NCBI GenBank assembly: GCA_040275305.1 | Contig: JBEOJY010000022.1 | Span: 3,455-67,454, forward strand | Source: Bdellovibrionales bacterium | GTDB lineage: Bacteria; Pseudomonadota; Alphaproteobacteria; UBA9219 | Direction: 5' to 3' | DNA: 64,000 bases | Program-made: the position numbers and the translations under genes | Notes under the pieces: model-generated | Seen by the model: the letters and a program-made list of their open reading frames with translations, nothing else | Databases searched by the model: none | Told to the model about the DNA's origin: nothing | Shown: positions 5,128-54,652 of the stretch, piece after piece | Numbering within the stretch: position 1 is the stretch's first letter | How the letters are laid out: each line of letters starts with the position of its first letter

Positions 5128-5352
5128 TATACTCCGTTTCCTTGAAAACACGCAAAAATGGCTGTCATTCCGCAAAATTTTTTTTCGGATTGCGAAGCAA
5201 GCTGATAAGAAAATTTATGCTGAATCCGATGTTTTTCATGGGGTTAGGACAAGATCGGATTCCGCATCTCCGCTTTCCGACCTTCGGTCGGAAGCTTCGT
5301 GCGGAATGACAGCCCTTTTTGCTTTTTCGGGTTTTCAATCGTACAGAGTATA
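5128..5352. mobile_element. MITE-like element (TATAC-TIR family) with CTGTCATTCCGC...GCGGAATGACAG cargo
   Basis: Imperfect TIRs tatactccgtttccttgaaaa / ttttcaatcgtacagagtata. Near-identical copy at 54426..54652. Confidence 0.8.
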
Positions 5353-5490
5353 GTATGGCTGGGATCAGAAATTTGCTAGCTGGAAGCGGGGCATTTTTTG
5401 GCGTCTTTCGGCCTTCAGTCCACGGTGGATTTTGACCATGCCACCCTACAGGCTAACCCTTTGAACATACATGATTAATGTAACCGTCTG

Positions 5491-5670
5491 CGTCATTCCG
5501 GCGAAAGCAGGAATGACGGCCCTTCTTACTGTGGTCATTCTTACGGAAATTATTGAGAATGATCATAGATGCCACAAAAAACAGCGCCTGTGATTCTGGA
5601 TCGCCACGTCGCCGCCCGTCTTCGCCCTCCGGGCTACGACGCAGCAAGTCGGCTCCTCGCGATGAGACGC
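5491..5670. repeat. Cluster of REP-like palindromes (one short hairpin plus one half element)
   Basis: cgtcattccggcgaaagcaggaatgacg at 5491-5518; tctggatcgccacgtcgcc...gctcctcgcgatg at about 5590-5670, matching the right arm of 12274..12375. Confidence 0.7.
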
Positions 5671-5827
5671 ATACGGTTACTCTTTCCTTACCCTGTCTTG
5701 GATCGCGTCACGGCATGGAAGTTACTCTGGAACGACTTGTACGCGCGCAGGAATGCGGGGTGTAAAGGCGTGGCGATCCTTGAGGGAACCAACTGTCTCC
5801 CAAGGTCAAGACATGAAGACAGGCTGG

Positions 5828-8413
5828 CTAATACAATCCTCCCGTTCCCATGGTCGAACCGTTCGGTCCAGACTGGGCTGGGGGCGGGGATGGCATTGCG
5901 GGAGCCGCTTCACCGCCGCTTACCGGGTTTTCCAAGTCTCCGGCCGGTGATTCAGGATAATACGTGACTGCGCCGTCTTGCATGATTGGGGGTTCTGTTT
6001 GCGTTCCCGGCGCTCCGTTACTCGCGGAACCCGTCACGCTGCCGTCCAGTACTGCGCGAATCTGCCCTTCCTGCGGTTCGGTGCCGGGAATATAGGCTTC
6101 CCAGATCGATTCTTTATCGCCGGAGATGGCAAGATCGCCTGTCGCAGGGTTGATTTTGACCATGCGCAAGCCGGGCGGCATGCGATACGGCACGTTAGGC
6201 ATGCCCTTGATCGCTTCCGTGATAAAGTCCCGGAAGATCGGAACGGCTACGCTCGCGCCAGTTTCATGCGAACCGAGCGGTTTAGGGTTATCAAAGCCGA
6301 CAAACACGCCACAGACCAGATCGGGCGTAAAACCGACAAACCATGCGTCCTTGCTGTCATTCGTGGTGCCGGTTTTTCCCGCCAGAGACACGGGAATATC
6401 GTGAAGCTTCGCCGCCGTGCCGCGCTGGACGACCCCTTGCAACATCGACACCATTTGATAAGCCGTACGCGGATCTTCCACCTGCTCGCGCGTGTCCGGG
6501 AGGTCGGGCGGCAGGAGATCCTGCGTCCAGCCTAGATTGCTGCACCCCTCGCAAAGGCGGTTATCCACACGCCAAACTGTGTGGCCTTCGCGGTTCTGAA
6601 CCCGATCGATGAAACTTGGCGCGATCTTGCGTCCCCCGTTGACGATTTCTCCGTAGGCCGCCGTCAGGCGCAACGGCGTGGTTTCCTTTGCGCCCAGCGA
6701 GAATGACAGCAGTTCCGGCATATCATCGACAATCCCGAATTTCTTGGCGTATTCCACCACGCTCGGCATGCCAATCGCGTTGGCAAGGCGTACCGTCATG
6801 ACGTTGCGCGATTTCTCGATGCCGACGCGCAACGGCGTGGGGCCGTAGAATTCCTGCGAATAGTTTTCGGGCTGCCAGAGCGGGAGTCCCGGGCCTTGAT
6901 AATATTCAAACGGCGCATCAAGCACGAGGCTTGAGGGCGTAAACCCCTTGTCGAGCGCGGCCATGTAGATGAAGGGTTTGAAAGCCGATCCCGGCTGGCG
7001 CAAGGCTTGCGTCGCCCGGTTGAACTGGCTGATGCGCGCGCTGAAACCGCCTTCCATGGCAAAAACGCGGCCCGTGTTCGGGTCCATCGCGACAATCGCG
7101 CCTTGTATGACGGGAACTTGTCGCAATGCGTAGGCATTATCGGGGTGGGCTTTTCCGTCTTCCCCAACTTTGACGCGCTCAACCATCACCACGTCTCCGA
7201 CGGCCAACACATCTGCGGGCTTGCGCACAGGGGGACCAAACTTATTGTCGTCCAGCTCACGCCTTCCCCACTTCATTTCCACCCACGGAATTAAGCCGCG
7301 CTGGCCGTCCAGCAGCATAATTTGCGCGTCCGCGTCATGGAGGGCGATGACAATGGCCAACGGCCATTCTTCGCCGCCCGGGGGCTGCGTCATGGTTTTC
7401 AGCTTGTTCACAGCATCGCTGCCGCCTATGATATGAGCGACAGGCCCGCGCCAGCCGCGCTCGCGGCGGTCATAGGCAATCAATCCGTCGCGCAAGGCTT
7501 TCGTCGCCAAGGCCTGAAGGCGTGGATTGAGGCTGGTTTTGACCGCAAGCCCCCCGCCTAGAACGGTTTCCTCGCCGAACTGCTTGATAAGTTGCCGCCT
7601 GACTTCCTCGGAAAAATAATCAGCGATGACGGTTTCGGCTTCGTCGCGGTGGCGCGCTTCGAGGGATTCCTGCTGCGCAAGGTATTTCTCGTTGTCGGTT
7701 ATGTAACCATTCACCGCCATGCGCGAAAGCACCCAGTTGCGGCGCTCTATGGCCTGCGCGTGATTGCGCGTAGGATTATAGCTGTTCGGCGCTTTGGGCA
7801 AGGCAGCCAGATAGGCGGCTTCGGCTAAACTTAGCTCATCAAGCGATTTGTTGAAGTAGTTCAAGGCGGCAGCGGCAACGCCGTAAGAGCGATTGCCCAA
7901 AAAAATCTCGTTCAGGTAAATTTCGAGAATGCGGTCTTTGGACAGGACTTTTTCTAGCCGTGTTGCCATGATAATCTCGCGTACTTTGCGCGCCACCGAT
8001 ACTTCATTGCTCAGCAGCATATTCTTGGCGACTTGTTGCGTGATGGTCGATGCGCCCATCGGTCTGCGGTCACGGCCTACATTTTGCATATTTATCAGAG
8101 CCGCGCGCGCAATTCCCGAAAAGTCGACGCCGCCGTGGTTATAGAAATCCTCGTCCTCCGCCGAAAGAAAGGCTTCAATCACTTTATGCGGAATTGTTTT
8201 GATGGGAACGAACACGCGCTGTTCCTGCGCGATGGTCGCCATCATACGACCATCGTCCGCGTAAATGCGCGTGAGGATCGGAGGCTGATAATCTTTAAGG
8301 TAAGAATAATCCGGCAAATCTTTGCTGTAATGATCAAATACCATCACTGTCGCGACGGCCCCGACCACTAGCAAGAGAAAAATGGACGATAGAAGGAAGG
8401 AGAAAAAGCGCAT
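5828..8413 (-). CDS. mrcA: Penicillin-binding protein 1A (class A PBP)
   Basis: N-terminal TM; transglycosylase motifs EDEDFYNHGG and GASTITQQVAKN; transpeptidase motifs GSAFKP (SxxK), SRN and KTGT. Confidence 0.95.
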   Translation of the reverse strand: MRFFSFLLSSIFLLLVVGAVATVMVFDHYSKDLPDYSYLKDYQPPILTRIYADDGRMMATIAQEQRVFVPIKTIPHKVIEAFLSAEDEDFYNHGGVDFSGIARAALINMQNVGRDRRPMGASTITQQVAKNMLLSNEVSVARKVREIIMATRLEKVLSKDRILEIYLNEIFLGNRSYGVAAAALNYFNKSLDELSLAEAAYLAALPKAPNSYNPTRNHAQAIERRNWVLSRMAVNGYITDNEKYLAQQESLEARHRDEAETVIADYFSEEVRRQLIKQFGEETVLGGGLAVKTSLNPRLQALATKALRDGLIAYDRRERGWRGPVAHIIGGSDAVNKLKTMTQPPGGEEWPLAIVIALHDADAQIMLLDGQRGLIPWVEMKWGRRELDDNKFGPPVRKPADVLAVGDVVMVERVKVGEDGKAHPDNAYALRQVPVIQGAIVAMDPNTGRVFAMEGGFSARISQFNRATQALRQPGSAFKPFIYMAALDKGFTPSSLVLDAPFEYYQGPGLPLWQPENYSQEFYGPTPLRVGIEKSRNVMTVRLANAIGMPSVVEYAKKFGIVDDMPELLSFSLGAKETTPLRLTAAYGEIVNGGRKIAPSFIDRVQNREGHTVWRVDNRLCEGCSNLGWTQDLLPPDLPDTREQVEDPRTAYQMVSMLQGVVQRGTAAKLHDIPVSLAGKTGTTNDSKDAWFVGFTPDLVCGVFVGFDNPKPLGSHETGASVAVPIFRDFITEAIKGMPNVPYRMPPGLRMVKINPATGDLAISGDKESIWEAYIPGTEPQEGQIRAVLDGSVTGSASNGAPGTQTEPPIMQDGAVTYYPESPAGDLENPVSGGEAAPAMPSPPPAQSGPNGSTMGTGGLY

Positions 8414-8801
8414 GGACTTCGTTTTAACTGGCGAATCGGCAAGTCGGCCTTCTGGGTTGTAACGCCTCGTTCCTGCTTGCGCCACGGAAATCGTCACAAT
8501 GGCTGGTCGCGATTGCCTCTGAGTACTATGCCTGCATGGAGAATTGAGGGCTTCTCTTTTGTCATTCCCAAGCTGAGGTGGCCTTTAAGGCAGGGCTAAG
8601 ATTTTCCTTTTGAAGACGTTCATGGGACGGATCGGCTTTCCTTACTCTGTCTTCCATCATGAGGCGGTTTAGGAGTTGCCTTTTTCAGGCATTGGGGGGT
8701 TTCCATGTGGCCGCGATAAAGGACCACCGCATTATTTCCTTGTCGCGACAGAGCGTTATTCCGTTAACTGCTTATTATTGTCGTTTTGTTAAGATATCGT
8801 T

Positions 8802-9077
8802 ATGACAGGTTCCGGAATTGACTCCTTTCGTCGACAGCTTGAGGGCTATCGCCTGACGACAGCCGAAATACTGTATCGCATGCCAGACCATCCTGCGTTG
8901 TTACAAAGTTATGTCTGGCAGGAGCTTGATCTTGTTCCTAAGTTCCCTGAGCTGCGGGCTTTCCTTAAGTTCTGGAATCGTCAGCTTGACGGCAAGCTCT
9001 ATCGCGTGACGGTAGCGGCGCGTGCGCCGATGGCGCCAATCATCTTTACTTGCGCGGATCAGGAATTTCTTTGCTGA
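8802..9077 (+). CDS. usg: Usg family protein
   Basis: QLEGYRLTTAEILYRMPDHPALLQSYVWQELDLVPKFPEL..FLKFW...LDG matches the Usg family pattern. Confidence 0.88.
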   Translation: MTGSGIDSFRRQLEGYRLTTAEILYRMPDHPALLQSYVWQELDLVPKFPELRAFLKFWNRQLDGKLYRVTVAARAPMAPIIFTCADQEFLC

Positions 9078-9111
9078 CGCCGTCCCCTAGATATGCTTGA
9101 TGTCGTAGATT

Positions 9112-9417
9112 ATGCGCGATGTTCGATTGTTGATTCTGTCCCTCCTGCTGCTTTCCGGCTGCGCTCCGGCCTATCGGCCACTGGTGGATATGCGCGGGGT
9201 CGATCCCGTCGACTTCAAGCAGGATTTGGCCGAATGCCGCGCTTATGCCGCGCAGCGCATTCCTTACAACAGCCACGCTCTTCCTTTGGAATCGGAGGAT
9301 GATGCCGCCTATGACCCGAACTATGGCAGTATTTCGCCGACCAAGGGGACGATCAAGCGCGAAAAGCGGATTATCAGGCGATGTTTGATGGGGCGCGGCT
9401 ATAGGGTGTTGGACTGA
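9112..9417 (+). CDS. Small lipoprotein
   Basis: Lipobox LSGC; PLVDMRGVD...DLAECRAYA and C-terminal RCLMGRGYRVL as in glycine-zipper-type small lipoproteins. Confidence 0.75.
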   Translation: MRDVRLLILSLLLLSGCAPAYRPLVDMRGVDPVDFKQDLAECRAYAAQRIPYNSHALPLESEDDAAYDPNYGSISPTKGTIKREKRIIRRCLMGRGYRVLD

Positions 9418-10209
9418 TTATTTTTCTAACCAGTCCATCAGTTTGCCGTTGAAGTTTTCCAGAATGTTGTTGTGCTCTTTGCCTGTGAACTGGAAAAATG
9501 TTTTCGGCTCGCGCGCGGCGGCAAAGAGCCGTTTGCCGTGAGACAGGGGGATTACGATGTCCTTGTCGCCGTGGCCGATTAGGACTGGCGCTTTGATTTG
9601 CGCGATTTTCGCAAGATTGTCGAAGCGATCAATGGTCAGGAGTTCAGCCGGGAAGATCGGAAAGCGGCGCTGCGCCATTTTCGCGACTGACAGATAGGGG
9701 GCGGCAAGCGCCAGCGCTGCTATGTCAGGGTATTCGACCGCCATTTGCGTCGCGACGCCCGTACCTAGCGAATGGCCATAGAGGGCGATGTTTTTCTCAT
9801 CCACGCCGCGCGATTTTAAGGCTTCGATAAAGGCGCGAGCGTCCGCGTAAAGCCCTTGTTCGCTGGGCGTTCCCTGTTGTCCGTTGTAGCTTCTGTATTC
9901 CACCAGAACGACGCCATATCCCCCCTCGACCAGCGAAACCATGGGGATTGCTATCGTGCGGATATTGTCCGCATTGCCGTGGAACACAACAATCGTTTGA
10001 AGCTTGTCTTGCGCAGGGGCCCACAGGCCACGAAGCGTGAGGCCATCGGACGTTGTCACGTCTAAAGGCGCGAATCTGGGGTGGGCAGGTTGCGCCAATT
10101 GCGCCGCTGCCCATTCCGCTCGCCCCGGTAAATAGATAATTTTGCTCTGAAAAATATACAGCGCAGCCAGCAGCGCCAGATATACGCCCACGCATGCCAG
10201 CGCAATCAT
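9418..10209 (-). CDS. Membrane-anchored alpha/beta hydrolase (ABHD17/YfhR-like)
   Basis: FHGNA, nucleophile GHSLG, HGDKDIVIP, terminal His (GKEHN). Start placed at MIALAC. Confidence 0.9.
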   Translation of the reverse strand: MIALACVGVYLALLAALYIFQSKIIYLPGRAEWAAAQLAQPAHPRFAPLDVTTSDGLTLRGLWAPAQDKLQTIVVFHGNADNIRTIAIPMVSLVEGGYGVVLVEYRSYNGQQGTPSEQGLYADARAFIEALKSRGVDEKNIALYGHSLGTGVATQMAVEYPDIAALALAAPYLSVAKMAQRRFPIFPAELLTIDRFDNLAKIAQIKAPVLIGHGDKDIVIPLSHGKRLFAAAREPKTFFQFTGKEHNNILENFNGKLMDWLEK

Positions 10210-10243
10210 GCGAATCCTATCGCGTGAAACTTTTTTGCGCGTC

Positions 10244-10804
10244 TCAAGCTGCTTCGGCAACTGTTTCCACAGAGTCGAAAAACGCCATAATTTCATCCAC
10301 CCAGTTTTCATGCATATCGCCATTTGAGGTGTAGATGTCGCGATCAAGCATCGTTGGCGTTTCCACGATCACGGCGCCAGCGGCCTTAAGCTCCGCATGA
10401 AGCTCCGCAGGCGCGGCGATTTCGCGTCCCGCGATTCTTGTCGACAAGGCCAATAGTCCAACGCCTGCTCCAAGCGCTGCGATCGGCTTGGAAGCATCAA
10501 GAAAATGACTTACGATGCGGCGCGTGTGTAGATTTCCCTTAAGTTTAGCCACCGCGCGTTCCCCGCCCGACAAGATCAACATGTCGAAATCGGAACCCAG
10601 CGTTTCGTTAATCTGCGCATCAATCGGGAAATGATGCCCCCATCCATTGCCGTGCCATCCGTTAACCACACCTTGCTCCGGCGCGATGGATTTAATATTC
10701 GCTTTTTCTTTAACCAGCGCACGCTGGATTTCGGTAACCTGATCTTCGTCGAAACCGTTTGCAATCAATATGGCAATTTTCCTGCCTGCGAGCCGTGAGG
10801 GCAT
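10244..10804 (-). CDS. DJ-1/PfpI family protein lacking the catalytic Cys
   Basis: GRKIAILIANGF, FDMLILSGGE, KPIAALGAG where the family has AICHG. Confidence 0.8.
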   Translation of the reverse strand: MPSRLAGRKIAILIANGFDEDQVTEIQRALVKEKANIKSIAPEQGVVNGWHGNGWGHHFPIDAQINETLGSDFDMLILSGGERAVAKLKGNLHTRRIVSHFLDASKPIAALGAGVGLLALSTRIAGREIAAPAELHAELKAAGAVIVETPTMLDRDIYTSNGDMHENWVDEIMAFFDSVETVAEAA

Positions 10805-11121
10805 GTCTTTTCTATCTCCTTAGAACTATTGTGTATTCTTGCGTGATGTGGGAGTGATTACGATGTCCGTCTATCCGAACTGATGGCTGTGGCGGGTTTC
10901 GCTTAAAGCCATATTTGACGATGCGCTTCTGCTCGTCCCTATTTTGTGCGCCCTATATGGCACATAACAATTCGAATTGAAATACTTTATTTACTTTCTG
11001 GATGCAGTCTTTAACGGCCTGTTGCGCGATAGTCGCACCCGGAACGGTTTCCCGCTTTCCTGCCTCGTTGCGTTATGGCAGCATCTGGCGGCAGTCACCT
11101 TCATAAAGGCACTATCCAGAC

Positions 11122-12129
11122 ATGTCTCAGCCTATCGTTCTTACAGGGATCAAACCGACCGGCATTCCACATCTTGGAAATTATGTCGGCGCTATCAAAC
11201 CCGCCATCGCCCTGTCGCGCGAGGGCGGGCGGACATTCATGTTCATCGCGGATTATCATGCGCTGAATCAGGTGCATGACGCGGCGCAACTGACGCAGTT
11301 TTCGCGCACCATCGCGGCGACGTTTCTCGCGCTGGGACTTGATCCAGAACGCACAATTTTCTATCGCCAGTCGGACATTCCGGAGATACCGGAATTCGCC
11401 ACGATCTTAAGCGCCGTGACGCCCAAGGGCCTTATGAACCGTTCGCATGCCTATAAAGCGGAGCTTGACCGCAATTCGCAAGCAGGCAAGGAGGATCTCG
11501 ATATCGGGATTAACATGGGGCTGTATACCTATCCGATCCTGATGTCGGCGGATATTCTTCTGTTCGACACCGATCTTGTGCCGGTCGGCAAGGATCAGGT
11601 GCAGCATGTCGAATTCGCCCGCGATATCGCGGGACATTTCAACCGCTATTACGGCGAAATCCTGAAGCTCCCGGCGCATGTCATCTCGGCGCAGGCCGCG
11701 AACATCCCCGGTCTTGACGGGCGTAAGATGAGCAAAAGCTATAATAACATCATTCCCTTGTTCGAGGAACCTGCGGCGCTTAAGAAGCTCATTATGAAAA
11801 TCGCGACGGATTCAAAACGGCCAGAAGAGCCGAAAGATCCTGACAATTCTACGCTGTTCCAACTCTATACTCAGTTCGCCAGCGAGGATCGCGTCGTAGA
11901 GCTGCGCAATGCGTTCTTGAAGGGCGGCATGGGTTATGGAGAGGCCAAGAATCTTCTGTTCGAGGCGATTGATTCCACCCTGTCGGAGCCGCGCCGCATC
12001 TTCGGCGAGCTGATGCGCGACACGGCGAGGCTTAACGCTATCCTTAAGGCTGGCGCGGAGAAGGCCCGCGCTATCGCTACGCCGAATTTACGCAAGGTGC
12101 GGGAGGCTATAGGCGTGCGGCCTTTGTGA
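11122..12129 (+). CDS. trpS: Tryptophan--tRNA ligase
   Basis: TGIKPTG..HLGN (HIGH-like), VPVGKDQ, KMSKS. Confidence 0.96.
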   Translation: MSQPIVLTGIKPTGIPHLGNYVGAIKPAIALSREGGRTFMFIADYHALNQVHDAAQLTQFSRTIAATFLALGLDPERTIFYRQSDIPEIPEFATILSAVTPKGLMNRSHAYKAELDRNSQAGKEDLDIGINMGLYTYPILMSADILLFDTDLVPVGKDQVQHVEFARDIAGHFNRYYGEILKLPAHVISAQAANIPGLDGRKMSKSYNNIIPLFEEPAALKKLIMKIATDSKRPEEPKDPDNSTLFQLYTQFASEDRVVELRNAFLKGGMGYGEAKNLLFEAIDSTLSEPRRIFGELMRDTARLNAILKAGAEKARAIATPNLRKVREAIGVRPL

Positions 12130-12198
12130 CGGGACTGCGCCGCGCCATCTGAGAAAAATACCCAGCTTTTGAAACGGGGTGGGTATAGTATAGTTATT

Positions 12199-12428
12199 GT
12201 AACTTCCAAGGCAGGGGAGAAGAATCAAATAGCGGCATGATTGAAGACTAAAGCGGGAAAGCCTAGCGGCCAGCGTCATCGCGAGGAGCCGCAGGCGACG
12301 TGGCAATCCAGAATCACAAGCGCTGCCCCGTGGGACTCTGGATCGCCACGTCGCCTGCGGCTCCTCGCGATGACGGCCCTTGTTGCTATGAATATCTTGG
12401 TTTGCCAAGAGGAGCGCTTGGGAGTCAC
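12199..12428. mobile_element. MITE-like element (GTAACTTCCAAG-TIR family) enclosing a long REP hairpin
   Basis: gtaacttccaag ... cttgggagtcac ends. Internal 12274..12375 is a near-perfect long inverted repeat (cgtcatcgcgaggagccgcaggcgacgtggc...). Confidence 0.65.
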
Positions 12429-12547
12429 TACTTATCGCAGTTCAAGAGTTGGCAAACATTGACGCAAGACGGGCTAGCTTTAGGACTATTTCCAATTCTT
12501 GAACTGTAATGGGCATACACTTGTTGTGGCGTTGAGGAGTGTTGCGA

Positions 12548-13777
12548 ATGCGCATTTTAGAAACTGGCGACAGCAGTTTGTTTCCGTCCGATCTTGTGCG
12601 CGAGCAGGATTTCATTTTGCGCGTCCGGCGCTTTCAGCGGCTTGGCACTGCGCATTTTATTGCCAATCTTGCCTTGACAAGTCTGGCCCCTCTTGCCAAC
12701 AGCACGCGCTCGCTTGAGGCCGCGCAAGACAAGCTCCGCGAATTTGCCAAAGTTACACGGGGTTTTTTCACCGACATGTCGAACGGGGATGTGTTCATTT
12801 CTTGGGAAGGCAATGCGGATACCCGCACGATCATTTCACGCCTTAGCGACCTGTTGCCCCCGGAGACGACAAAAGCGGGAGACGGAAAGGGGTGGATTTC
12901 GCTTTTTACTCTGCCCGCCGACTATACCAAGCTGCGCGAGCGCGTGAATTACTATGTCGATATCGCGCGCACGCAATCCAAGATCGACGCCAACGGCAAG
13001 CCTTCGCGCATCCTTCAAAGCGAAGCGGCACGGGGGCCTTTGACGGCGTGGAACGTCGATCAGATCGGCAAGCTGCTGGGCGATATCGACCTCAGCCGCT
13101 ATATCCGTATTCAGCCGATTTATAGACGCAAAGGCGAACATAGCTGGGAGTCGGTCAGCGAAGAGTTTTTCATCAGCTTCGAGGAATTGAAGCGCGAGCG
13201 CTTTCCACATGTCGATTTGTCCGCGTCCGAGCATCTGTTTCTCGCGCTGTGCGAAACGCTTGATCAGCAATTCCTGTCGGATCTTTGCTGGCATCGCGAC
13301 TTGATCGAGGGCCGCAATGTCAACCTCAACTTGTCGATCTCTTCGGTTGTCGGCAACGTCTTCACCCAATTCGCCCACGGCATCCCGCACGGCCAGCGCG
13401 CGCGTATTTGCTTCGAGATCCATCGCGGCGATTTGTTTCAGGATTTCACGCGCACGATGGGCGTTTTGGACACGCTCAAGAAGGAGGGTTTCCATGTCGC
13501 CATCGACGGCATTACGCCCGACATGCTGCGTTGCCTTGACGTGACCGCGCTGGGCGCAGATTTTATTAAGATCAATGTTTCCCGCGACCGCGCCGCGCTG
13601 GTTTCAGAGTCTGCCGTACTTAAGAAGATGGCGTTGATCCCTCCGGAGAAGCTGGTTTTTTTCCGTTGCGACAACAATCAAGCGCTGGAGGCAGGCGTCA
13701 AGCTCGGTATCACGCTGTTTCAGGGGTGGTTGATCGACGACGACGCGCATCCGCATCCGGAAAAAACAAAAAAATAG
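12548..13777 (+). CDS. Degenerate EAL-domain protein
   Basis: C-terminal IQPIY, NLNLS, CFEIH, GFHVAIDG and DFIKI align with the EAL barrel; EAL and DDFGTG motifs are altered. SD GAGGAG before ATG 12548. Confidence 0.7.
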   Translation: MRILETGDSSLFPSDLVREQDFILRVRRFQRLGTAHFIANLALTSLAPLANSTRSLEAAQDKLREFAKVTRGFFTDMSNGDVFISWEGNADTRTIISRLSDLLPPETTKAGDGKGWISLFTLPADYTKLRERVNYYVDIARTQSKIDANGKPSRILQSEAARGPLTAWNVDQIGKLLGDIDLSRYIRIQPIYRRKGEHSWESVSEEFFISFEELKRERFPHVDLSASEHLFLALCETLDQQFLSDLCWHRDLIEGRNVNLNLSISSVVGNVFTQFAHGIPHGQRARICFEIHRGDLFQDFTRTMGVLDTLKKEGFHVAIDGITPDMLRCLDVTALGADFIKINVSRDRAALVSESAVLKKMALIPPEKLVFFRCDNNQALEAGVKLGITLFQGWLIDDDAHPHPEKTKK

Positions 13778-13786
13778 AGCGCGCAT

Positions 13787-14740
13787 ATGCCCTTATCACC
13801 CCCCATCATCACGCTGACGATCAGCGAGGAACTGGTCGGTCAGAGGCTGGACAAAGCGCTTACAGGGCTGCTTGGGGCAGAATCGCAGGGCCTTTCGCGC
13901 GCCAGACTCCAGTCGTTGATTGATCACAAACATGTTTTGGATGCAGGCAAGCCCGTTCTTCAGGCAAGTCGCAGGGTCAAGGCCGGGGAAACGTTCACTA
14001 TCGAGCTGCCGGAGCCGGAGCCAGCCGGGCCGATCGCGCAGAAGATGGATTTGAAGATCGTGTTCGAAGACAAAGACGTCATCGTTATCGACAAGCCTGC
14101 GGGGATGGTCGTGCATCCCGCACCCGGCAATCGCGACAAGACGCTGGTCAATGCCCTGCTCGCGCATTGCGGCGAGAGTTTGAGCGGCGTCGGCGGCGTC
14201 GCACGTCCGGGGATCGTGCATCGGCTGGACAAGGACACCAGCGGTTTGATGGTCGTCGCCAAGAACGATATGGCGCATCAGGGACTTGCGGCGCAATTCG
14301 CGGATCGCAGTTTAAGCCGCACTTATCACGCCATCATTCATGGCGTCCCGACGCCACGCGCAGGTATCATCGACGCGCCGATAGGACGGCACCCACGCGA
14401 CCGAAAGAAAATGACCGTCATCGGCAAAGGGCGCGTCGCCGTCACGCATTACAAGGTGATTGAAGCGTTCGGAACTTTGGCCAGTCTGGTCGAGTGCTCG
14501 TTGGAGACGGGACGCACACACCAGATCCGTGTGCATCTGGCGCATATCAAACACCCGGTGCTGGGCGATCCCGTCTATGGCCAGCGCGGGGCCGCTAAGA
14601 AAGGGATTCCGGCCTTTCCCCGGCAGGCGCTGCACGCGATCGGGTTGCGTTTCGCGCATCCTCGTAACGGAAAAGCGATGACTTTCACCTCATCATTTCC
14701 GAAGGATATGCGGGACCTATTGCGCAACTTTTGCTTATGA
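13787..14740 (+). CDS. rluD: RluA/RluD family 23S rRNA pseudouridine synthase
   Basis: N-terminal S4 domain (RLDKAL, SRARLQ), DKPAGMVVHP, HRLDKDTSG, LETGRTHQIRVH. Confidence 0.92.
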   Translation: MPLSPPIITLTISEELVGQRLDKALTGLLGAESQGLSRARLQSLIDHKHVLDAGKPVLQASRRVKAGETFTIELPEPEPAGPIAQKMDLKIVFEDKDVIVIDKPAGMVVHPAPGNRDKTLVNALLAHCGESLSGVGGVARPGIVHRLDKDTSGLMVVAKNDMAHQGLAAQFADRSLSRTYHAIIHGVPTPRAGIIDAPIGRHPRDRKKMTVIGKGRVAVTHYKVIEAFGTLASLVECSLETGRTHQIRVHLAHIKHPVLGDPVYGQRGAAKKGIPAFPRQALHAIGLRFAHPRNGKAMTFTSSFPKDMRDLLRNFCL

Positions 14741-15205
14741 CCCGGTCTGGGCACGGAGCATCCAGATCGTCTTGTCATGGACTGCGAGGCGGCCGATTAA
14801 CATATCCTCGGTCGCGCGGTCTTCGACTTCTTCGGCGAAGGCGCGGGCTTCCTCGATCCGGCCGCGGGTTTTCTCGTGCGATTTGAGCAAGTCCTTCACC
14901 ATCGCGGGAGCCGTCATCGGGTCGCTGTCGGATTCTTCAATCACCGTGTTATCGCGGAAGGCTTCGGTGCTGCCGGGGGCCGGGAAGTCCAGCGCGCGGA
15001 TACGCTCGGCCAGCTCGTCAGCCGCCGCGAAAAGCTCTGTATATTGCTCTCCAAACAAGGCGTGGAGTTGGGGAAACAACGGTCCTGTCACGTTCCAGTG
15101 GTAACCGTGGGTTTTGATCATGAGCAAATAGGTGTCGCTGAGCACGTCGATCAGGTGTTCGGCCATCTGGGCATCGGCGTTATGGGCGGGTTTCTTGGGA
15201 GGCAT
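14735..15205 (-). CDS. dps: Dps family ferritin-like DNA-protecting protein
   Basis: KTHGYHWNVTGPLFPQLHALF..QY...DELAERIRAL. Confidence 0.95.
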   Translation of the reverse strand: MPPKKPAHNADAQMAEHLIDVLSDTYLLMIKTHGYHWNVTGPLFPQLHALFGEQYTELFAAADELAERIRALDFPAPGSTEAFRDNTVIEESDSDPMTAPAMVKDLLKSHEKTRGRIEEARAFAEEVEDRATEDMLIGRLAVHDKTIWMLRAQTGS

Positions 15206-15260
15206 TGCGGGTTCCTTTCAAAAGAAGTATCCATCTTTACATTAGGCTTCTGCTCGGCGT

Positions 15261-16634
<1,374 letters not shown>

Positions 16635-16666
16635 TTATTCTCGATTCTCGTTTGTACTTTGTGGGT

Positions 16667-17209
16667 ATGATTAAATATATTTATGCAATCGCTTGTTGTC
16701 TTGTTGTTTGCGTCACGTCTTCTCTTCCGGCGATCGCGCAGACGCCTGATGCGAATAGTGGTGCGGGGCATCCGAAAGTGCTGGCTAATGGATTTGCACA
16801 TATGGTCCTGCAGGAGGGTGTGTATGCGTGCGCCGAGCGTGTCAATCAGGTCACCACGTTTTTGGGCGGCATAGCTGGCTCAAGCGGAGGCGTTGCGATG
16901 ATTCGTCCAGATCAACCCAATTCGCGCCTGTTTCCGCTTTCCATGGAAGTGCAAACCGAGACGGGCAGCGCATTCGCATCCGCATCTTTTGCCCCTAATC
17001 AGGCCAACGGGTGCGGCGCAGCATATGACGCGGTGGTTTACTGGCCCCAAAATTGTCTCACAGTCGCGGCCTTGCGTTTCGGCGCTTTCAAGAAAAGCGG
17101 TTTGCTTGGGAAAAACATAGTCGTTCTTGACGGCGGCAATACGACGAAAGTTTTTCTAATGCCCGCCGATACCGGATGCGTCTCGATTAAGCAAGAGGTC
17201 ATTATGTAA
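16667..17209 (+). CDS. Secreted hypothetical protein with four Cys in the mature part
   Basis: Signal peptide ending AIA|Q; ASASFAPNQANGCGAAY..VVYWP; lies about 45 bp upstream of the adhesin on the same strand. Confidence 0.8.
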   Translation: MIKYIYAIACCLVVCVTSSLPAIAQTPDANSGAGHPKVLANGFAHMVLQEGVYACAERVNQVTTFLGGIAGSSGGVAMIRPDQPNSRLFPLSMEVQTETGSAFASASFAPNQANGCGAAYDAVVYWPQNCLTVAALRFGAFKKSGLLGKNIVVLDGGNTTKVFLMPADTGCVSIKQEVIM

Positions 17210-17254
17210 CGGTCGGCATTATGCCTGCCGACCACTTTCCGTTGAGGATTACCT

Positions 17255-18508
17255 ATGTCTGTACGCCTTCTGGTTTGTTCCCTCTTGTGCTGTGTCGTTG
17301 CCTTGGCGGGCTTCTTGCCAGCGCGAGCTTATGCACAAAACGCGGTTGACAACACCAACGCTGTGGCCACGAGCCTTAATGCTGGGACGGGCACAGCAAC
17401 AAGTATCGGAAATTCGGCAGGAACAACAGTCAATGGCCCTGCCACGATCAACGGCACGCTTTCGCAAACCGGCAATACCAGCATCAACACTTCCGGGGTG
17501 GGCACAACCACAATCGGCGATTCGGTAAACACCACCAATATTCAAAGCATCACCACGAATATCGGGGCGGGCACAGACAGCAACGCAATCAACATTGGAA
17601 ACTTAAACGCCACAAATACCATCAATGGCACCACCAGCATTAATAACAATGTCAACGCCAACACAAACATCAATACGGGATCCACTTCCGGAAACGTGAG
17701 CATCGGGGGCACGGGCAACACGACGACTATTCAGAGCGCCGTCGCCCGTATCGGAGCAGGCAGTAGTTCGACATCCACCACTATTGGAAATTCAGTTTCC
17801 GGGACGCTGGTTCAGCTTCAAAGCAACAATGCAAGCGTTTCTGTCAACAGCACCAGCGTTGGTTCCGGCATCACGGGGGGAACGGCCACAGTAGGAAGCG
17901 GTACGACCTCTTCGCAGTCTTATCTTGCAAACAGTGGAGGCGCTGGCGTTCAGATTGGCAGCAACGGTCATCTGACTTCAGCCACAACCTCGGAGGCGAC
18001 CGCAGCAATGGTGGTTACTAATGGCATTGGCAACATGCACGGTTTTGTCGTTACGGAACACGCTGCCGTTGTGTCTGGCGGCACGACATCAAACAGCATG
18101 ACCATTAACGACGATGGCGCAAGTTTTGCGAACAGCGACACAGGCGCGCCGATCAAAGTTACAGGCGTCGCGAACGGCACGAGCCAGTACGATGCAGCAA
18201 ATTATGGGCAAGTTTCCAGACTGACGAGTTCCGTTAATGATCTTGATAACAAAGTCGATACGCTTCACAAGAACATGGCAGGCGGCATCGCATCGGTCGC
18301 CGCAATGTCCGCGCTTCCCGGTTTGGAAAAAGGCAAAAAGTACGCTATCGGGATGGGAACAGGTTATTTCGATTCTCAGGCAGGTTTTGCGCTTGGTTTT
18401 ATCGGTCGTTTCAACAAGAAGGTTGTCGGCAGAATCGGCCTTGCAATGTCGCCTACTTCGCCGGAGACAAACACCGTAGCAAATGCTGGCATTTCCTATG
18501 CTTGGTGA
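17255..18508 (+). CDS. YadA-like trimeric autotransporter adhesin
   Basis: Signal peptide; N/T/S/G-rich beta repeats; neck IKVTGVANGTSQYDAANYGQ; coiled-coil stalk; anchor GGIASVAAM...G.G.F...AGISYAW. Confidence 0.9.
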   Translation: MSVRLLVCSLLCCVVALAGFLPARAYAQNAVDNTNAVATSLNAGTGTATSIGNSAGTTVNGPATINGTLSQTGNTSINTSGVGTTTIGDSVNTTNIQSITTNIGAGTDSNAINIGNLNATNTINGTTSINNNVNANTNINTGSTSGNVSIGGTGNTTTIQSAVARIGAGSSSTSTTIGNSVSGTLVQLQSNNASVSVNSTSVGSGITGGTATVGSGTTSSQSYLANSGGAGVQIGSNGHLTSATTSEATAAMVVTNGIGNMHGFVVTEHAAVVSGGTTSNSMTINDDGASFANSDTGAPIKVTGVANGTSQYDAANYGQVSRLTSSVNDLDNKVDTLHKNMAGGIASVAAMSALPGLEKGKKYAIGMGTGYFDSQAGFALGFIGRFNKKVVGRIGLAMSPTSPETNTVANAGISYAW

Positions 18509-18692
18509 AGGCGAAGAAGCTGGAAGTTCTAGGGTATTGTTTACGCAGCTTATCCGCAGTTCTGGCTTTCGCCGCAGCGACTTTGCAAACATCCTCTAAT
18601 GGTAGGCAGAAAATTGTTATTCCGCGTTTTCTGCGGCGTCAAGCGCAGTTGTTCTAGTTATCGATGTCTATCCGCACCGCGCAATCTTCAGA

Positions 18693-20201: not shown

Positions 20202-20264
20202 AAGGCGATATCCTGTCGGGGGTCAGGTTAGCTTGATGCAAGCGATTCGTCCAAAGGGAACCTG

Positions 20265-20861: not shown

Positions 20862-20997
20862 GGCAATATGCCTTGTGCGCAAATAATGCAGACAAGGTAC
20901 ACGTTAATTATCTAGATACCGTGTAGATTAGGCGCAATCGATGATATTTCGCGTTCGTTACGTCTTTGCTTTTCAGGCTTTTTGCGGTTCAGATTCT

Positions 20998-21215
20998 GTA
21001 ACTTCCAAGCCGTTCCATCGAGGGGTGCCGTCATTCCGGCGAAAGCCGGGATCCAGTTGCGAGCGGCGGCGAGCGGAAGAGTCATGAAATATAAGCAAGA
21101 ATCGATGCTTAAACATGACTCTCTCGCCGCGTGGACACGCGGCGCTGGATCCCGGCTTTCGCCGGGATGACGCTCGTTGCTATGTTGGTCTTGATGCTGG
21201 CAGCTTGGCAGTTAC
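20998..21215. mobile_element. MITE-like element (GTAACTTCCAAG-TIR family) with cgtcattccggcgaaagccggga cargo
   Basis: gtaacttccaagc ... gcttggcagttac ends (one mismatch). Internal palindrome 21029..21172 is related to 53241..53375. Confidence 0.65.
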
Positions 21216-21229
21216 CAAATTTTCTGCCC

Positions 21230-21619
21230 TTAACCCAGCGTTAACTTTTGAGAATTTGTCGCTTGGTTGGTTGGGGGCGCGATTATTGCTGGCGCCGTGG
21301 GTTGTCGGCTTGCCTTTTCGGGCTGGGCTAGGGCACTTCCCATGTGATTCACTTGCATGGCGCCTGTCGTCATTCCTGCGCAAAGGCCTAAAGCAAGGGC
21401 TAATGGCCTTATTCTATGTGGGTTTACAACTTTTGATGCAGCGATCAACGCTATTGCCGAGACTATGGCTGCGCTACCGGCCAGATTGCGCATATCTGGC
21501 GATGCCGTTACCGGAAGTCCTGCGCATATGATGCTGCCCGTTACACCGGCCAGACTGCCAGCCGCAATGTTGCAAGCTGTGGATAGCGCGTCAAAGCGCA
21601 ATACAATTTCCGACTTCAT
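21230..21619 (-). CDS. Orphan membrane protein
   Basis: SD AAAGGA before ATG 21619; three hydrophobic Gly/Ala-rich segments followed by a polar tail. Confidence 0.6.
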   Translation of the reverse strand: MKSEIVLRFDALSTACNIAAGSLAGVTGSIICAGLPVTASPDMRNLAGSAAIVSAIALIAASKVVNPHRIRPLALALGLCAGMTTGAMQVNHMGSALAQPEKASRQPTAPAIIAPPTNQATNSQKLTLG

Positions 21620-21714
21620 AATACTTTCCTTTGTTTGTATATAATATTCTCTATCTAACAATTGTGTATAAGGCTGCCTGTTCTTTAGTCAAGCCTGCTT
21701 TTCCTGTAATGTTT

Positions 21715-22659: not shown

Positions 22660-22712
22660 ATTTCGATAATATACCTGTATCACCTCAAGAGCTTGCCTCA
22701 TCTATGATACTG

Positions 22713-25829: not shown

Positions 25830-25980
25830 TATACTCCGGAACGGTAAAAACCAGAAACAGCCGAAAGGACAGTCATTCCGCGCGTAGCAGCCTGCGAAGC
25901 AGGATGCGGAGATGCGGAATGACAGCCCTTTCTATAACGTTTGCTCGTCTTTGGGTCTGAGAAGCGCTTGGCAGTTGCAT
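25830..25980. mobile_element. Degenerate hybrid MITE (TATAC-type left arm, CTTGGCAGTT-type right end)
   Basis: The 47-bp left arm tatactccgg...cagtcat aligns without gaps to the family arm; cargo ends gcggagatgcggaatgacagccc; right end gaagcgcttggcagttgc. Confidence 0.5.
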
Positions 25981-26025
25981 CACAGAGCTTCCTTAATCAA
26001 CGCTTCATAATTTATGGGCGTTGCC

Positions 26026-26131
26026 CTGATGCCCGCCTGCGCGGGCATGACAGGATTTCGGCAAATATCGTCCATTAATCCCGGCGTCACACCCGTCCCC
26101 GCCTCCGCGAGGACAGGCTCCGGCGGGTGTC
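26026..26131. repeat. REP-like composite repeat
   Basis: gatgcccgcctgcgcgggcatgac plus a 46-bp core (26086..26131) identical to 42614..42659. Confidence 0.85.
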
Positions 26132-26387
26132 TCATTTTTCTGTATAGTTATGCAAGAAGTCTAATGACGGTCCTTTCGGCGTTTTTCAGGGGAAGCGTGG
26201 TTGGGGAAATTTGTGCGTTGCAGCGGAGTGGCCTACCAGATGTGGCGTGGTCGCGTTTTTGTTCCCAGTCGTACTCATATTGTTCTTCTTTAGTTCTATT
26301 TTATGGTTGCATAACGTTGCTTGCCTGAAACTAGTAGTTAATTGATTTTCCTTGATATTTACACATTATTATCACTCTTTTCCTTGA

Positions 26388-35381: not shown

Positions 35382-35468
35382 TGGTGCCCGGGAGAAGACT
35401 CGAACTTCCACGACATCGCTGCCACAGGTACCTGAAACCTGCGCGTCTACCAATTCCGCCACCCGGGC
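35382..35468 (-). tRNA. tRNA-Leu(CAG)
   Basis: GCCCGGGTGGCGGAATTGGTAGACGCG-CAGGT-TTCAGGT-ACCTG-long variable arm-GGAAGTTCGAGTCTTC-TCCCGGGCACCA; 87 nt with encoded CCA. Confidence 0.97.
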
Positions 35469-35577
35469 AGATGGAAGAGTGGCAAATTAGCCGTCTTGCG
35501 GCCAAAGCGCAAGCGGCGGTTTCATGTATCTATCGTACCTGAAGAGTTGGCAGACATTGACGCAAGGCAGGATGGAT

Positions 35578-35737
35578 TCCCTCCCCCTTGCGGGCAGGGG
35601 TAGTTAGGGTGGGGGCCGGAAACAAGAAAGCAGGCATTAGGTATTAGAACGCCCTCGCGGCAGGATTCTGCCTTCTGATTCCTGTTTTCTGCTAGCTGAA
35701 TCCCCCCCTCCCTATCCCTCCCCACGAGGGGGAGGGG
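35578..35737. repeat. C/G-tract REP-like inverted repeat (ccctccccct...agggg family)
   Basis: ccctcccccttgcgggcagggg...ggtggggg / ccccccctccctatccctcccacgagggggagggg; related to 47774..47885. Confidence 0.7.
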
Positions 35738-35810
35738 ACCACACTGCCCTTACTTCGAAATTGTTCCCAACTTTTGAAGTGAATGAGTGAATATTCTGAG
35801 ATGCAATCCT

Positions 35811-38383: not shown

Positions 38384-38442
38384 ATAATTCGTGGTTAATG
38401 GTCGAAAAAATTGCAGATATAATGCCCGTTCTTGGTGGTTGC

Positions 38443-38596
38443 AAAGGGCGTCCTTGCGGAAAGAGCCGCCTTTGCGAGGAGATGTCCGCCGCTGGCGGAA
38501 AACGACGCGGCAATCCAGAGTCGTCAGGGGTTGTCTTACGTCGGTAGATTGCTTCGCCCCAAGCGGGGGGGGGCTCGCAATGACGGCCCTTTTTGC
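38443..38596. repeat. Degenerate CGTC-type REP element
   Basis: gcaaagggcgtccttgcgga...gcaatccagag...agattgcttcgcc...gctcgcaatgacggccctttttgc. Confidence 0.7.
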
Positions 38597-38704
38597 GTCT
38601 TATGTCCATAGGCCTCCTGAGCCTGAGGACGGTTTGGCTGTTACCAATACTGTGCGCGAGCAGGTCAGGGCCTGCCTGCGCGGGCATGAAGGCTTGAGGA
38701 TGGG

Positions 38705-40183
<1,479 letters not shown>

Positions 40184-40422
40184 TCAGGGGCTTGTCCCCT
40201 TGCGGGACTGGTTAACGATGGCGAGGATATATAGCTTAATTTTGTCGTCCATGCCAAGGAGAATTAATAATTTCGACACAGGCTTTTTGTTCGCCATGAC
40301 AACTATTTTGCGCGCCATCTCCGCAAATTAACCACCCCATATTCATGGAACCAAACTAGTTCACATTAACTGTTTCCATTTTATTCTATTTGCTTTCATG
40401 TATTTATGTAAAATCTACTTCT

Positions 40423-42480: not shown

Positions 42481-42552
42481 GCTCTCACGACGCGTTAACA
42501 GTCTGCTGAAAAACGTTTCTGGAGGCGCTGGTGCTTATAGAAGAAGAAAATG

Positions 42553-42660
42553 GGATGCCCGCCTCGCGGGCATGACGCTTGTTTTTATTGAGAAGTTTTT
42601 CTCAACAGGCGCTGTCACACCCGTCCCCGCCTCCGCGAGGACAGGCTCCGGCGGGTGTCC
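42553..42660. repeat. REP-like composite repeat
   Basis: ggatgcccgcctcgcgggcatgacg plus a 46-bp core identical to 26086..26131. Confidence 0.85.
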
Positions 42661-42814
42661 CATTTAGTATTTGCGCCTTCCTGATGGGTTTTTTGGCAAA
42701 CTGTTAATTTATTCGCTCACCTTAAACAGGTTGAGATTTGCGCTGGAAGCAAGTACCTGTTGTCCATGATCCTTTATGTCTGGACATATCTTTAACACAC
42801 CACAGCGATACGCC

Positions 42815-52644: not shown

Positions 52645-52872
52645 GGTTGCGAAGCTCATCGAGCTATGTTGCGCCCCATCAAAACTTTTCAGATTATAGC
52701 AGGATAGAATAACGCGATCGCGGGAATTTGGCATTGTTGTCGCCAAGAGTAACAAGGCAACATGGCGATAGGATTGCCGTTTTACTTTTTGTTTCAGTTT
52801 TTAATCGCTCTGCGGCTTGATTCTTCGCCTCTTCCTTGAGGATTGCGAAGCCTACTCACAATCGCGTTAACT

Positions 52873-53173
52873 TATACTCCGTAGGATTGGAAAGCCGAAA
52901 ACGCAACAAGGGCCGTCATCGCGAAGAGCCCTCTTCGGGCGACGACGCGATCCAGAGTCGGCGGCGATGTCCTGTGGGATTCTGGATTGCTTCCGCCGTC
53001 GTTGCTACGCAACTATGGCGGACAGGTCGCCCCCAAGAAGGGGGCTCGCAATGACGGTCCTTGCGGGAATCTCCTCGCGATTGACGGCCCTTCTGCCAGG
53101 ATTGTCTTTCATGAGCCACAAGAAGCGCTTTCCGGGCCAGTCATTTTTCGGGTTTCCAATCATACGGAGTATA
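52873..53173. mobile_element. MITE-like element (TATAC-TIR family) with cargo inverted relative to 49805..50114
   Basis: 29-bp TIR tatactccgtaggattggaaagccgaaaa / ttttcgggtttccaatcatacggagtata with two mismatches. Confidence 0.85.
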
Positions 53174-53240
53174 CCCTACACGTTAACGCATTGTTGGATA
53201 ACAAAACTTATCTTGGCCGAAAGTCTCATGTGTGGACGGC

Positions 53241-53375
53241 GCAAGCCGGAATCCAGCTTGCGAGCGGCAGCGAGAGGAAAAGAACGAATTCACGGCCTGC
53301 GATCAAGGGTGCGCTTTTGACTCCTTCGCGCCGCAGACGCGGCGTTGCTGGATTCCGGCTTTCGCCGGAATGACG
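53241..53375. repeat. REP-like palindrome (gccggaatccag...ctggattccggctttcgccggaatgacg)
   Basis: Related to the cargo at 21029..21172. Preceded at about 53196 by ataacaaaacttatcttggccgaaag, also found reverse-complemented at about 5106-5131. Confidence 0.75.
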
Positions 53376-53596
53376 CGGACGGTCACAACGAATCTTGTTT
53401 TGTAGCAATGAGTTAATGTGTAGGGTAGCGTGTCATTATGCCGAAATCGTTAGCAACTTTAATTCTGCCCTGATGGGCGCCCGCCTTCGCGGACGTGATG
53501 CCTTGCTGTCTGAGTGTTTTTGGGAAGCATCACGTTCCCTCCACCGGGGTTGCCCATCACAGACAACCCCAAGTCCGGGAGCTTCAACCAACTCGC

Positions 53597-54007
53597 TTAC
53601 GCGACCTTGCTGCTCTTTTGCACGATCTTAGTGATGGCTGTGTTGGTGTATTGCGCGACTGGATCCATCGCTTCTTTGGTCATGCGGGCGGAGATTTCAG
53701 AAATTTTTCCGGTCCCTACCATCCAGCATTCAAACAGGTCTTTCATGAATTCCGTTTGAATGTCGACCAATTCACGGGGGTTCTTGACGCTGGAGAGCGT
53801 TTTGCTCACGTTCATTACGCGATTTACGCTGTCTTGCATCAAACTTCCGGCACTGCGCGACGATTCATCGAGGCCGCGCGTCACGGCGGTGGCCGATTTC
53901 ATCGCAACATCGACCGATTCGCGCGCGAGGCAATTCATTTCCTCGCAAAGTTGCGCAAGATTCTGGGCGACCTTTTCGACCTGTTCGTTGGGGAATACGT
54001 TGTTCAT
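53597..54007 (-). CDS. Phasin family protein
   Basis: SD AAGGAG; helical pattern ...KTLSSVKNPRELVDIQTEFMK...KISE...EAMDPV. Confidence 0.8.
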   Translation of the reverse strand: MNNVFPNEQVEKVAQNLAQLCEEMNCLARESVDVAMKSATAVTRGLDESSRSAGSLMQDSVNRVMNVSKTLSSVKNPRELVDIQTEFMKDLFECWMVGTGKISEISARMTKEAMDPVAQYTNTAITKIVQKSSKVA

Positions 54008-54425
54008 GGTTGATCTCCTTTGATACTGGCTATTCGGTTGCGTGATAGTTTCCAAATTTCGCGATGCGCTTGCGCCGCCCTGCGGCAAAGAAGCGGGAGA
54101 TGTTGCATCTTTCCGTTTTCTTTGCGCCGGTTTTCGCTTCGCTTTCGCTGGCGATTGCTCTGATCTTGACGACATGTGCCTCCATCGACCTGCACATTAC
54201 GGTTATTTGAGCGCCTTGACATTTTCCCCATGTGGAAACTTGCCCTTGGGAGACAGGGCCCTTTGTCGGATCATCTGGATTGACCCTGACCGCATCTGCT
54301 TGCTCTGGAACGCACTCAGGCGATTCTTGCAACCGCTCCGACACTTCACGCTCCTTTCTTCATGCTGCGTTGCAACATGGTAAATCCGCTCTTCCAACTC
54401 GTCAAGTGTCCTTACGATTTTTAGT

Positions 54426-54652
54426 TATACTCCGTTTCCTTGAAAGCACGAAAAAGGACCGTCATTCCGAAAAATTTTCTTTTCGGATTGCGAAGCAAGC
54501 TGATAAGAAAATTTATGCGGAATCCGCTGTTTTTCATGAGGTTTGGACAAGATCGGATTCCGCATCTCCGCTTTCCGACCTGAGGGGTCGGAAGCTTCGT
54601 GCGGAATGACAGCCCTTTTTGCTTTTTCGGATTTTCAATCGTACAGAGTATA
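54426..54652. mobile_element. MITE-like element (TATAC-TIR family), direct copy of 5128..5352
   Basis: Aligns end to end with 5128..5352 apart from scattered substitutions and a small indel. Confidence 0.85.

Follow-up and report, generated by a model that had tools for sequence, protein, structure and literature searches.

Short intergenic repeats that keep the same ends and enclose different palindromes raise the question of whether the ends act as a vehicle that captures cargo, or whether ends and palindromes have been recombined in another way. We addressed this question in a 64-kb window (the whole stretch analysed, 64,000 nucleotides of contig JBEOJY010000022.1) from an uncultured alphaproteobacterium, in which the original prediction had described one 47-bp TATAC arm capturing or exchanging repetitive extragenic palindromic (REP) hairpins. 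The evidence consists of this window and of depth profiles from one metagenome, obtained by aligning the contigs of one public run (X1, a bioreactor metagenome; baseline 27–29x) to the elements. We found four complete elements, named T-elements here, which have terminal inverted repeats (TIRs) and enclose pairs of hairpins resembling the Neisseria transformation sequence (NTS) and its degenerate form, the Ssn-related motif (SRM). The T-elements are best read as a new and fairly ordinary mosaic repeat family, and not as an active capture device.

The 47-nt arm pattern matched at the four sites predicted, with 0–3 mismatches (5306–5352 and 54606–54652 on the reverse strand, 49805–49851 and 52873–52919 on the forward strand), and gave 0 matches in shuffled sequences. 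A profile built from the eight ends found exactly eight arms in the window, pairing as four elements where none was expected by chance, together with weak partial matches to the inner part of the arm beside other palindromes. All eight termini read TATAC from the outside in, and the expected TATAC…GTATA inverted ends were confirmed for four complete elements; the end of element D is corrected to 53173. Element A (5128–5352, reverse strand, 225 bp) lies 300 bp upstream of ftsZ, with TIRs at 5128–5157 and 5323–5352 around two head-out, long-loop SRM units at 5163–5226 (forward) and 5258–5311 (reverse). Element B (54426–54652, reverse strand, 227 bp) is 93% identical to A and has TIRs at 54426–54455 and 54623–54652 and SRM units at 54460–54524 (forward) and 54556–54611 (reverse). 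Element C (49805–50114, forward strand, 310 bp) carries a compound SRM core at 49846–50028, composed of an outer head at 49846 and units at 49875–49945 (forward) and 49978–50028 (reverse), between TIRs at 49805–49834 and 50085–50114, with a 56-nt spacer (50029–50084) ahead of the right TIR. Element D (52873–53173, forward strand, 301 bp) has a core at 52914–53086 and TIRs at 52873–52902 and 53144–53173, complementary at 27/30 positions; the arms of C and D are 85–88% alike. As DNA, all elements fold into long hairpins, and do so far more stably than shuffled sequences (z from −7.4 to −10.5; −9.8 for A and −10.5 for D).

All copies are intergenic, in divergent promoter regions, downstream of genes or, for A, upstream of ftsZ, and the flanks of the four copies are unrelated. 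The elements are small and non-coding: neither A and B nor C and D have conserved reading frames in common, and the open reading frame (ORF) spanning B had no homologue or candidate in the protein database. With ~30-nt TIRs, TA at every terminus, constant and sharp boundaries and several dispersed copies, they have the properties of miniature inverted-repeat transposable elements (MITEs), as had been proposed.

Only part of the 47-bp arm belongs to the elements themselves. By aligning the ends, we found that the outer ~30 nt form the TIR (consensus TATACTCCGTATGATTGGAAACCCGAAAAA), which is specific to these elements and 20–29/30 identical between arms. Across the A/B and C/D subfamilies the identity is 20–27/30, or 17–27/30 when the degenerate 25830 type described below is included; the right arm of D is nearest to the consensus and matches arms of either subfamily at 26–27/30 positions. 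The remaining, inner ~17 nt (GCAAMAAGGGC-YGTCAT) are the flank and head of the hairpin repeat: AAGG(G/A)C-YGTCAT precedes nearly every CGTCAT head in the window, and AAGGGC-YGTCAT also stands at the armless hairpins at 12375, 38585 and 25924 and at the nested units at 49875 and 53056. The predicted arm consists to about a third of the hairpin's own flank and head, so that this shared part is no evidence for a vehicle. In every element, GCAAMAAGGGC-YGTCAT follows the TIR on one side and ATGRCTG… follows it on the other. Because the sequences inside the two TIRs differ, each T-element is asymmetric, and A and B are oriented opposite to C and D.

REP hairpins are defined by heads of the GTAG or GGAG type and go with a RAYT (Y1 transposase) gene that has REPs on its flanks. 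The heads enclosed here read CGTCAT, not GTAG, and we noticed no ORF of the Y1 or RAYT type in the window. The two palindrome types predicted are present, GTCATTCCGC in A and B and CGTCATCGCGAG in C and D, and share one plan: CGTC, an AT-initial stem, a loop, the complement of the stem and then CC(A/G)GA. We then scanned for structure, requiring YGTC, a 6-nt stem that begins with AT, a loop of at most 70 nt, the stem complement with no more than one mismatch, and a final C. This gave 22 matches in the 64 kb compared to 3.8 in shuffled sequences; ~17 of them are convincing, lie between genes and always form inverted pairs with the heads outward. Among these are the two units each of A and B (GTCATTCCGCA…TGCGGAATCCGAT), as well as those of C and D (CGTC-ATYGC…GCRAT-CCAGA), so that each T-element core is such a pair, built of long-loop units.

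According to Chenal et al. 2025 (PMC11893778), the NTS is CGTCATTCCCGCGMAVGCGGGAATCYRG, and SRMs, its degenerate form, occur in hundreds of copies in some genomes, including those of the alphaproteobacteria Wolbachia, Rickettsia, Sphingomonas and Devosia. That report links NTS/SRM to a site-specific single-stranded DNA (ssDNA) nuclease that modulates natural transformation; this enzyme, SsnA, is a 94-aa GIY-YIG protein that binds SRMs as ssDNA and cuts a few nt upstream, on one strand per motif orientation. In the window, the published SRM expression was matched at 21029 (forward), 21172 (reverse) and 53375 (reverse), within the E and F elements described below and not within T-elements. The unit at 53375, CGTCATTCCGGCGAAAGCCGGAATCCAG, is identical to the Neisseria NTS consensus at 26/28 positions, the two differences forming a compensatory pair, and the units at 21029 and 21172 are near-identical to the NTS. 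The T-element units fail the strict SRM expression (loops of at most 5 nt), most of them having loops of 20–60 nt, and fit the same plan with long loops. By sequence, the T-element cores thus appear to be NTS-like SRMs with a CGTC head (members or close variants of the class; PMC11893778), and the view of the cargoes as classical REPs is replaced. Among the intergenic repeats of this genome the hairpins predominate, with armless copies in the window at 421, 12274, 38440, 5491, 5666, 26052 and 42577. In support of the original prediction, the cores thus belong to a class that is also found armless.

The cores of C and D are inverted relative to each other. The C core (183 bp, 49846–50028) and the D core are 88% identical in inverted alignment compared to 59% in direct alignment, and their arms are co-oriented. 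The core is bounded by 22-bp palindromic ends (AAGGGCCGTCATCGCGAGGAGC and its complement), and C and D share the internal junction …CCCGCAAGGAC/CGTCATTGCGAG, which indicates that the compound core was formed once and was later flipped or re-inserted whole. The first 135 nt of the core are ~97% identical compared to 85–88% for the arms, and this greater likeness suggests homogenisation among very abundant hairpin units. The inversion speaks for recombination at the palindromic heads as the origin of interchangeable cores, and against independent captures for C and D.

Two further arm families enclose hairpins of the same class. The E element (53172–53427) has 48-nt imperfect TIRs (TA–CCCTACAC…GTGTAGGG–TA; in full, TA–CCCTACACGTTAAC…GTTAATGTGTAGGG–TA) around an NTS-pair core. 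The F family consists of a 13-nt module, TGTAACTKCCAAG, which occurs five times compared to 0.6 expected by chance (12198–12210, 20997–21009, 21204–21216, 25967–25979 and 5714–5726), each copy standing 20–75 nt outside an SRM (CGTCAT) head and facing it. Two of these copies, TGTAACTTCCAAG and CTTGGCAGTTACC, bracket an NTS pair with near-exact consensus units (21029–21056 and 21145–21172, whole region 20997–21216). The E core is 72% identical to the pair at 21029–21172, and the two cores are homologous. One core type is thus found within both E and F arms, so that a single vehicle that captures cargo is too narrow a picture. The degenerate copy predicted at 25830 (25830–25979, forward strand) was recovered in part: a degenerate T arm (25830–25859) and a short SRM pair with heads near 25871 (forward) and 25924 (reverse) give a 73% match to the A arm plus hairpin, there is no recognisable right TATAC arm, and an F module (25967–25979) stands where that arm would be. 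The T arms therefore enclose at least three core types (A/B, C/D and the 25830 type), which bears out the claim of the same ends around differing palindromes; since one NTS-pair core also sits in E and F arms, the relation between arms and cores is many-to-many and amounts to a combinatorial mosaic. Throughout the window, every arm faces an SRM head at 5–75 nt.

The depth profiles gave copy numbers and boundaries. B was covered over its whole length at 234–760x (~10–25 copies), the depth climbing exactly at 54426 and dropping at 54652. In D, the TIRs and the right half reached 110–270x (~4–9 copies), the outer hairpin heads ~900x (~30 copies), and the unit CGTCATTGCGAG…GCAATCCAGA (52973–53037) 2,000–4,340x (70–150 copies). 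Contigs from other copies break exactly at 52873, some of them with the same arms and shorter or different cores, and the end of another copy reads …CAATCGTACGGAGTATA followed by TCTA. A few more copies of the short 25830 type are present in X1, with diverged T arms on both sides. E is present in ~10 copies bounded at 53172 and 53427, and four of the six other E copies match through the TA ahead of CCCTACAC in this copy. No precise-excision joints were seen in X1.

TA is present at all eight T-element termini and at both E termini, and D and E share a single TA (53172–53173). This shared TA is consistent with what is expected if a TA-duplicating element inserted into the flanking TA of the other. 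We also considered the D and E junction as a duplicated composite and rejected it: no other X1 contig spans such a junction, and the junction is therefore regarded as a unique, independent adjacency. By analogy, the TA-terminal features are consistent with, and not proof of, TA-targeting cut-and-paste of the kind proposed for the IS630-mobilised RUP repeats.

Comparison with known systems places the T-elements beside several repeat families. They resemble the Correia elements (CREE/NEMIS) of Neisseria in being non-coding, with ~24–30-nt TIRs, TATA(G/C) termini, TA at both ends and long hairpins, and also in having subfamilies that differ in an internal segment, no known transposase, and NTS repeats in the same genome. 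They are larger (225–310 bp), and their sequence resembles that of Correia elements in TATA only; Correia cores do not consist of NTS hairpins, and in Neisseria Correia elements and NTS repeats are regarded as distinct. The T-element TIR TATACTCCGTATGATTGG shares only TATA with the Correia TIR, which we take, as a lead only, to be TATAG(C/T)GGATTAACAAAAA…, and the T-elements are not Correia members. With RUP of Streptococcus pneumoniae and IS630-Spn1 they share TIRs, a putative TA target and a proposed mobilisation in trans (PMC2229807, which describes MITE properties and proposes IS630-type trans-mobilisation of RUP at TA targets); RUP has a known parent insertion sequence (IS) with matching TIRs, whereas none is known for the T-elements. 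From these sequence comparisons, the T-elements seem to work like Correia or RUP-type MITEs without being members of either. Their hairpins and alternative accessory modules recall BIMEs of E. coli, NIMEs of Neisseria and RIMEs of rhizobia, as does the clustering in intergenic 'graveyards', here at 4829–5827 and 52873–53427; in classical BIMEs the REPs have GTAG heads and are associated with RAYT transposases, and no TIRs flanked by TA mark the boundaries. The NTS/SRM repeats of Neisseria, Wolbachia, Rhizorhabdus and others (PMC11893778) are alike in the CGTC head, the AT-initial palindromic stem and the trailing C(C)AG, and in being intergenic, very abundant, oriented and often in inverted pairs; they differ from most T-element units, whose loops are long. 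Finally, the CIRs of Caulobacter and Brucella are ~110-bp two-arm palindromes with GANTC near the loop and TA termini (PMC2229807). Also alphaproteobacterial, they resemble the armless 102-bp palindrome at 12274, by description and as a lead only, and the GANTC in most hairpin tails recalls them as well.

On balance, we lean towards the reading that the T-elements are a TA-targeting, trans-mobilised, MITE-like family whose SRM-pair cores were diversified by recombination and inversion between hairpins. A DDE transposase supplied in trans would bind the TIRs and insert the element at TA, now or formerly, along a route likened to that of IS630/Tc1-mariner-type MITEs such as RUP. The palindromic CGTCAT heads and AAGGGC flanks common to all hairpin units would serve as recombination sites, at which recombination, gene conversion or inversion could swap or flip the sequence between the arms and yield subfamilies with the same ends and different cores. 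Several results weigh against this reading. We found no transposase in the 64-kb window, as the original prediction had noted. TA is invariant at the termini and may thus be part of the TIR instead of a duplication, and the closest relatives reach only 62–65% identity by RapZ, so that no close relative is available for a comparison of sites. The exact degenerate arm pattern had 0 matches in 185,579 species genomes, JGI metagenomes and viral contigs, and neither D nor A had a blastn match among 72,556 plasmids. The 25830 copy joins a T arm to an F module, which indicates that the arms are not always paired. The hairpin cores far outnumber the arms (up to ~150 copies compared to 4–25), so that spread may be driven by the hairpin system and not by the TIRs.

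We regard as rather unlikely overall an explanation in which mosaic hairpin clusters of the BIME/NIME/RIME kind grew around SRMs, with T, E and F arms as accessory modules and with the hairpins driving the spread. An Ssn nuclease or ssDNA recombination at the hairpins would be the driver, possibly starting from an ancestral IS-like SRM-ssn-SRM unit whose gene was lost. The many-to-many combination of arms and cores, the excess of hairpins, the SRM head within 5–75 nt of every arm and the greater homogeneity of the most abundant core unit all favour it, and PMC11893778 likens an NTS-ssnA-NTS layout to an IS and reports that 81% of genomes with >200 SRMs encode Ssn. The uniform, sharp-edged 227-bp unit of A and B with its TA-flanked TIRs, however, is what a DDE transposon leaves rather than a loose mosaic. 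SsnA, moreover, cuts only one strand and is not known to transpose. No GIY-YIG gene emerged from a motif scan covering the window and all loci or from a Pfam search of ten small window ORFs. A TIR pair that repeatedly acquires different hairpins, either as two solo arms mobilising the DNA between them or through hairpin units homing into the MITE hairpin apex, would explain the three or more core types between T arms and the further variants in X1, as well as the T-specific 56-nt spacer on one side only in C/D, as if a hairpin had been added to an older core. We nevertheless hold such active capture to be decidedly unlikely: the arm sequences differ by subfamily (17–27/30), which points to old divergence over frequent exchange; C and D share a compound core that was formed once and then inverted rather than captured twice; and neither a core-less T-element nor a solo-arm pair was seen. 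Given the subfamily-specific arms and the inverted core, divergence with recombination and inversion fits at least as well as capture.

Selection by the host could also keep such structures as bidirectional terminators, mRNA stabilisers or modules for CcrM methylation. The predicted hairpins are very stable and all copies are intergenic, stretches rich in T (GCCCTTTTTGCTTTTT) come after the stems on both strands, and GANTC, which CcrM methylates in alphaproteobacteria, is found 9.2 times per kb of repeat compared to 3.3 elsewhere (2.8-fold), most hairpin tails (…ATCCAGA(A/G)TC) holding one. Function would leave the TA-flanked TIRs unexplained, the copies stand in differing gene contexts, promoter and terminator scans were not above shuffled sequences, and Rfam gave no match at gathering thresholds or at E <= 1; we therefore consider this origin very unlikely. 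Apart from these alternatives, the SRM pairs and the TA-flanked TIR elements may be mechanistically coupled, with T and E as gene-less derivatives of a TIR-SRM-ssn-SRM-TIR unit or with SRM pairs homing into the MITE apex, a proposal that we judge quite unlikely.

The window contains housekeeping genes (ftsZ, PBP1A, alr, rapZ, HPr and phasin genes). The nearest RapZ proteins, searched in the 185,579 species genomes and JGI metagenomes, come mostly from alphaproteobacterial metagenome-assembled genomes, and at such identities the lineage appears to be poorly sampled. The organism was at usable depth in only one public run (X1), and run SRR28882998 contains it. No other run searched contained the element, and no RNA runs were found. 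An exact look-up of the RapZ protein, with the start codon chosen here, gave no record. The exact protein of the methyltransferase was found on one 2,960-bp Logan contig alone, which is broken at C and D, and the gene caller called no ORFs in the partial arms on this contig. The arm was absent from 2.16 Mb of relatives' loci reached through RapZ; since none of the other genomes, metagenomes, plasmids and viral contigs searched contained it, we call the arm family lineage-specific. The top-ranking RapZ genome match bears the label Bdellovibrionales and is probably a mis-binned contig. The FtsZ of the window is unusually long (a 735-aa ORF).

Further repeats in the window carry hairpins of the SRM class or pieces of the arms. 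An armless 102-bp SRM palindrome (12274–12375, region 12198–12387) has the inner-arm flank GCCCTTGTTGCT at 12376–12387 and the F module at 12198–12210, and has no T-type TIR. An armless compound SRM (38440–38601) ends in …CTCGCAATGACGGCCCTTTTTGCGTCTT with the inner-arm flank only, and an armless SRM pair (421–561) is composed of CGTCATCGCGAGCGCAGCGACGCGATCCAGAGTC… and a degenerate partner. The gap between ftsZ and the PBP1A gene (4829–5827) is a patchwork of repeat fragments. Beside A, the debris at 5442–5726 includes an E-like arm (5442–5457), an NTS hairpin (5491–5518), an SRM head at 5666 (reverse) and the F module at 5714–5726. On the other side, a fragment from the inner part of an E-type TIR (5095–5127, reverse strand), 92% identical to the reverse complement of 53198–53233, abuts the left end of A at TA. 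We considered whether A lies inside an intact E element and rejected this, as the fragment is not resumed to the right of A, where the outer 27 nt of that TIR are missing. A composite repeat at 26010–26150 and 42536–42680 consists of an NTS-like hairpin (GATGCCCGCCTGCGCGGGCATGAC), a ~40-nt variable spacer and a 52-nt GC-rich hairpin, which is 98% identical between 26086–26137 and 42614–42665. Unrelated short repeats or palindromes were found at 12433–12480 and 35531–35578, at 35566–35748, at 47791–47870, and at 38424–38476 and 58714–58766; they include one near tRNA-Leu (35382–35468) and one G/C-tract palindrome (GAGGGAGAGGGGTTTGGGGTGAGGG and its complement). The elements are crossed by ORFs of 80–128 aa (5024–5353, 49848–50117, 52967–53373 and 54421–54663), and the right arm of B contains the TTG (54619) at which the longest ORF of a DacA-like carboxypeptidase gene starts. 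The repeats have probably given rise to spurious calls or wrong starts here, and ORF calls within such repeats should be treated as suspect in annotation.

What is new here is that NTS-like hairpins form the centres of separate units that are bounded by TIRs and flanked by TA, and that several arm families have been recombined with several types of core. Our literature search brought up no account of SRM pairs enclosed in TIR elements flanked by TA, and the passages of PMC11893778 consulted do not mention such packaging for the published system. If the SRM pairs and the TIR elements were mechanistically coupled, this would offer a concrete, testable way in which NTS/SRM repeats could have reached hundreds of copies, an expansion so far unexplained, and the T-elements would be a system for testing how these repeats spread. 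If not, the T-elements would be a clean example of how palindromic heads allow MITE cores to be swapped and inverted.

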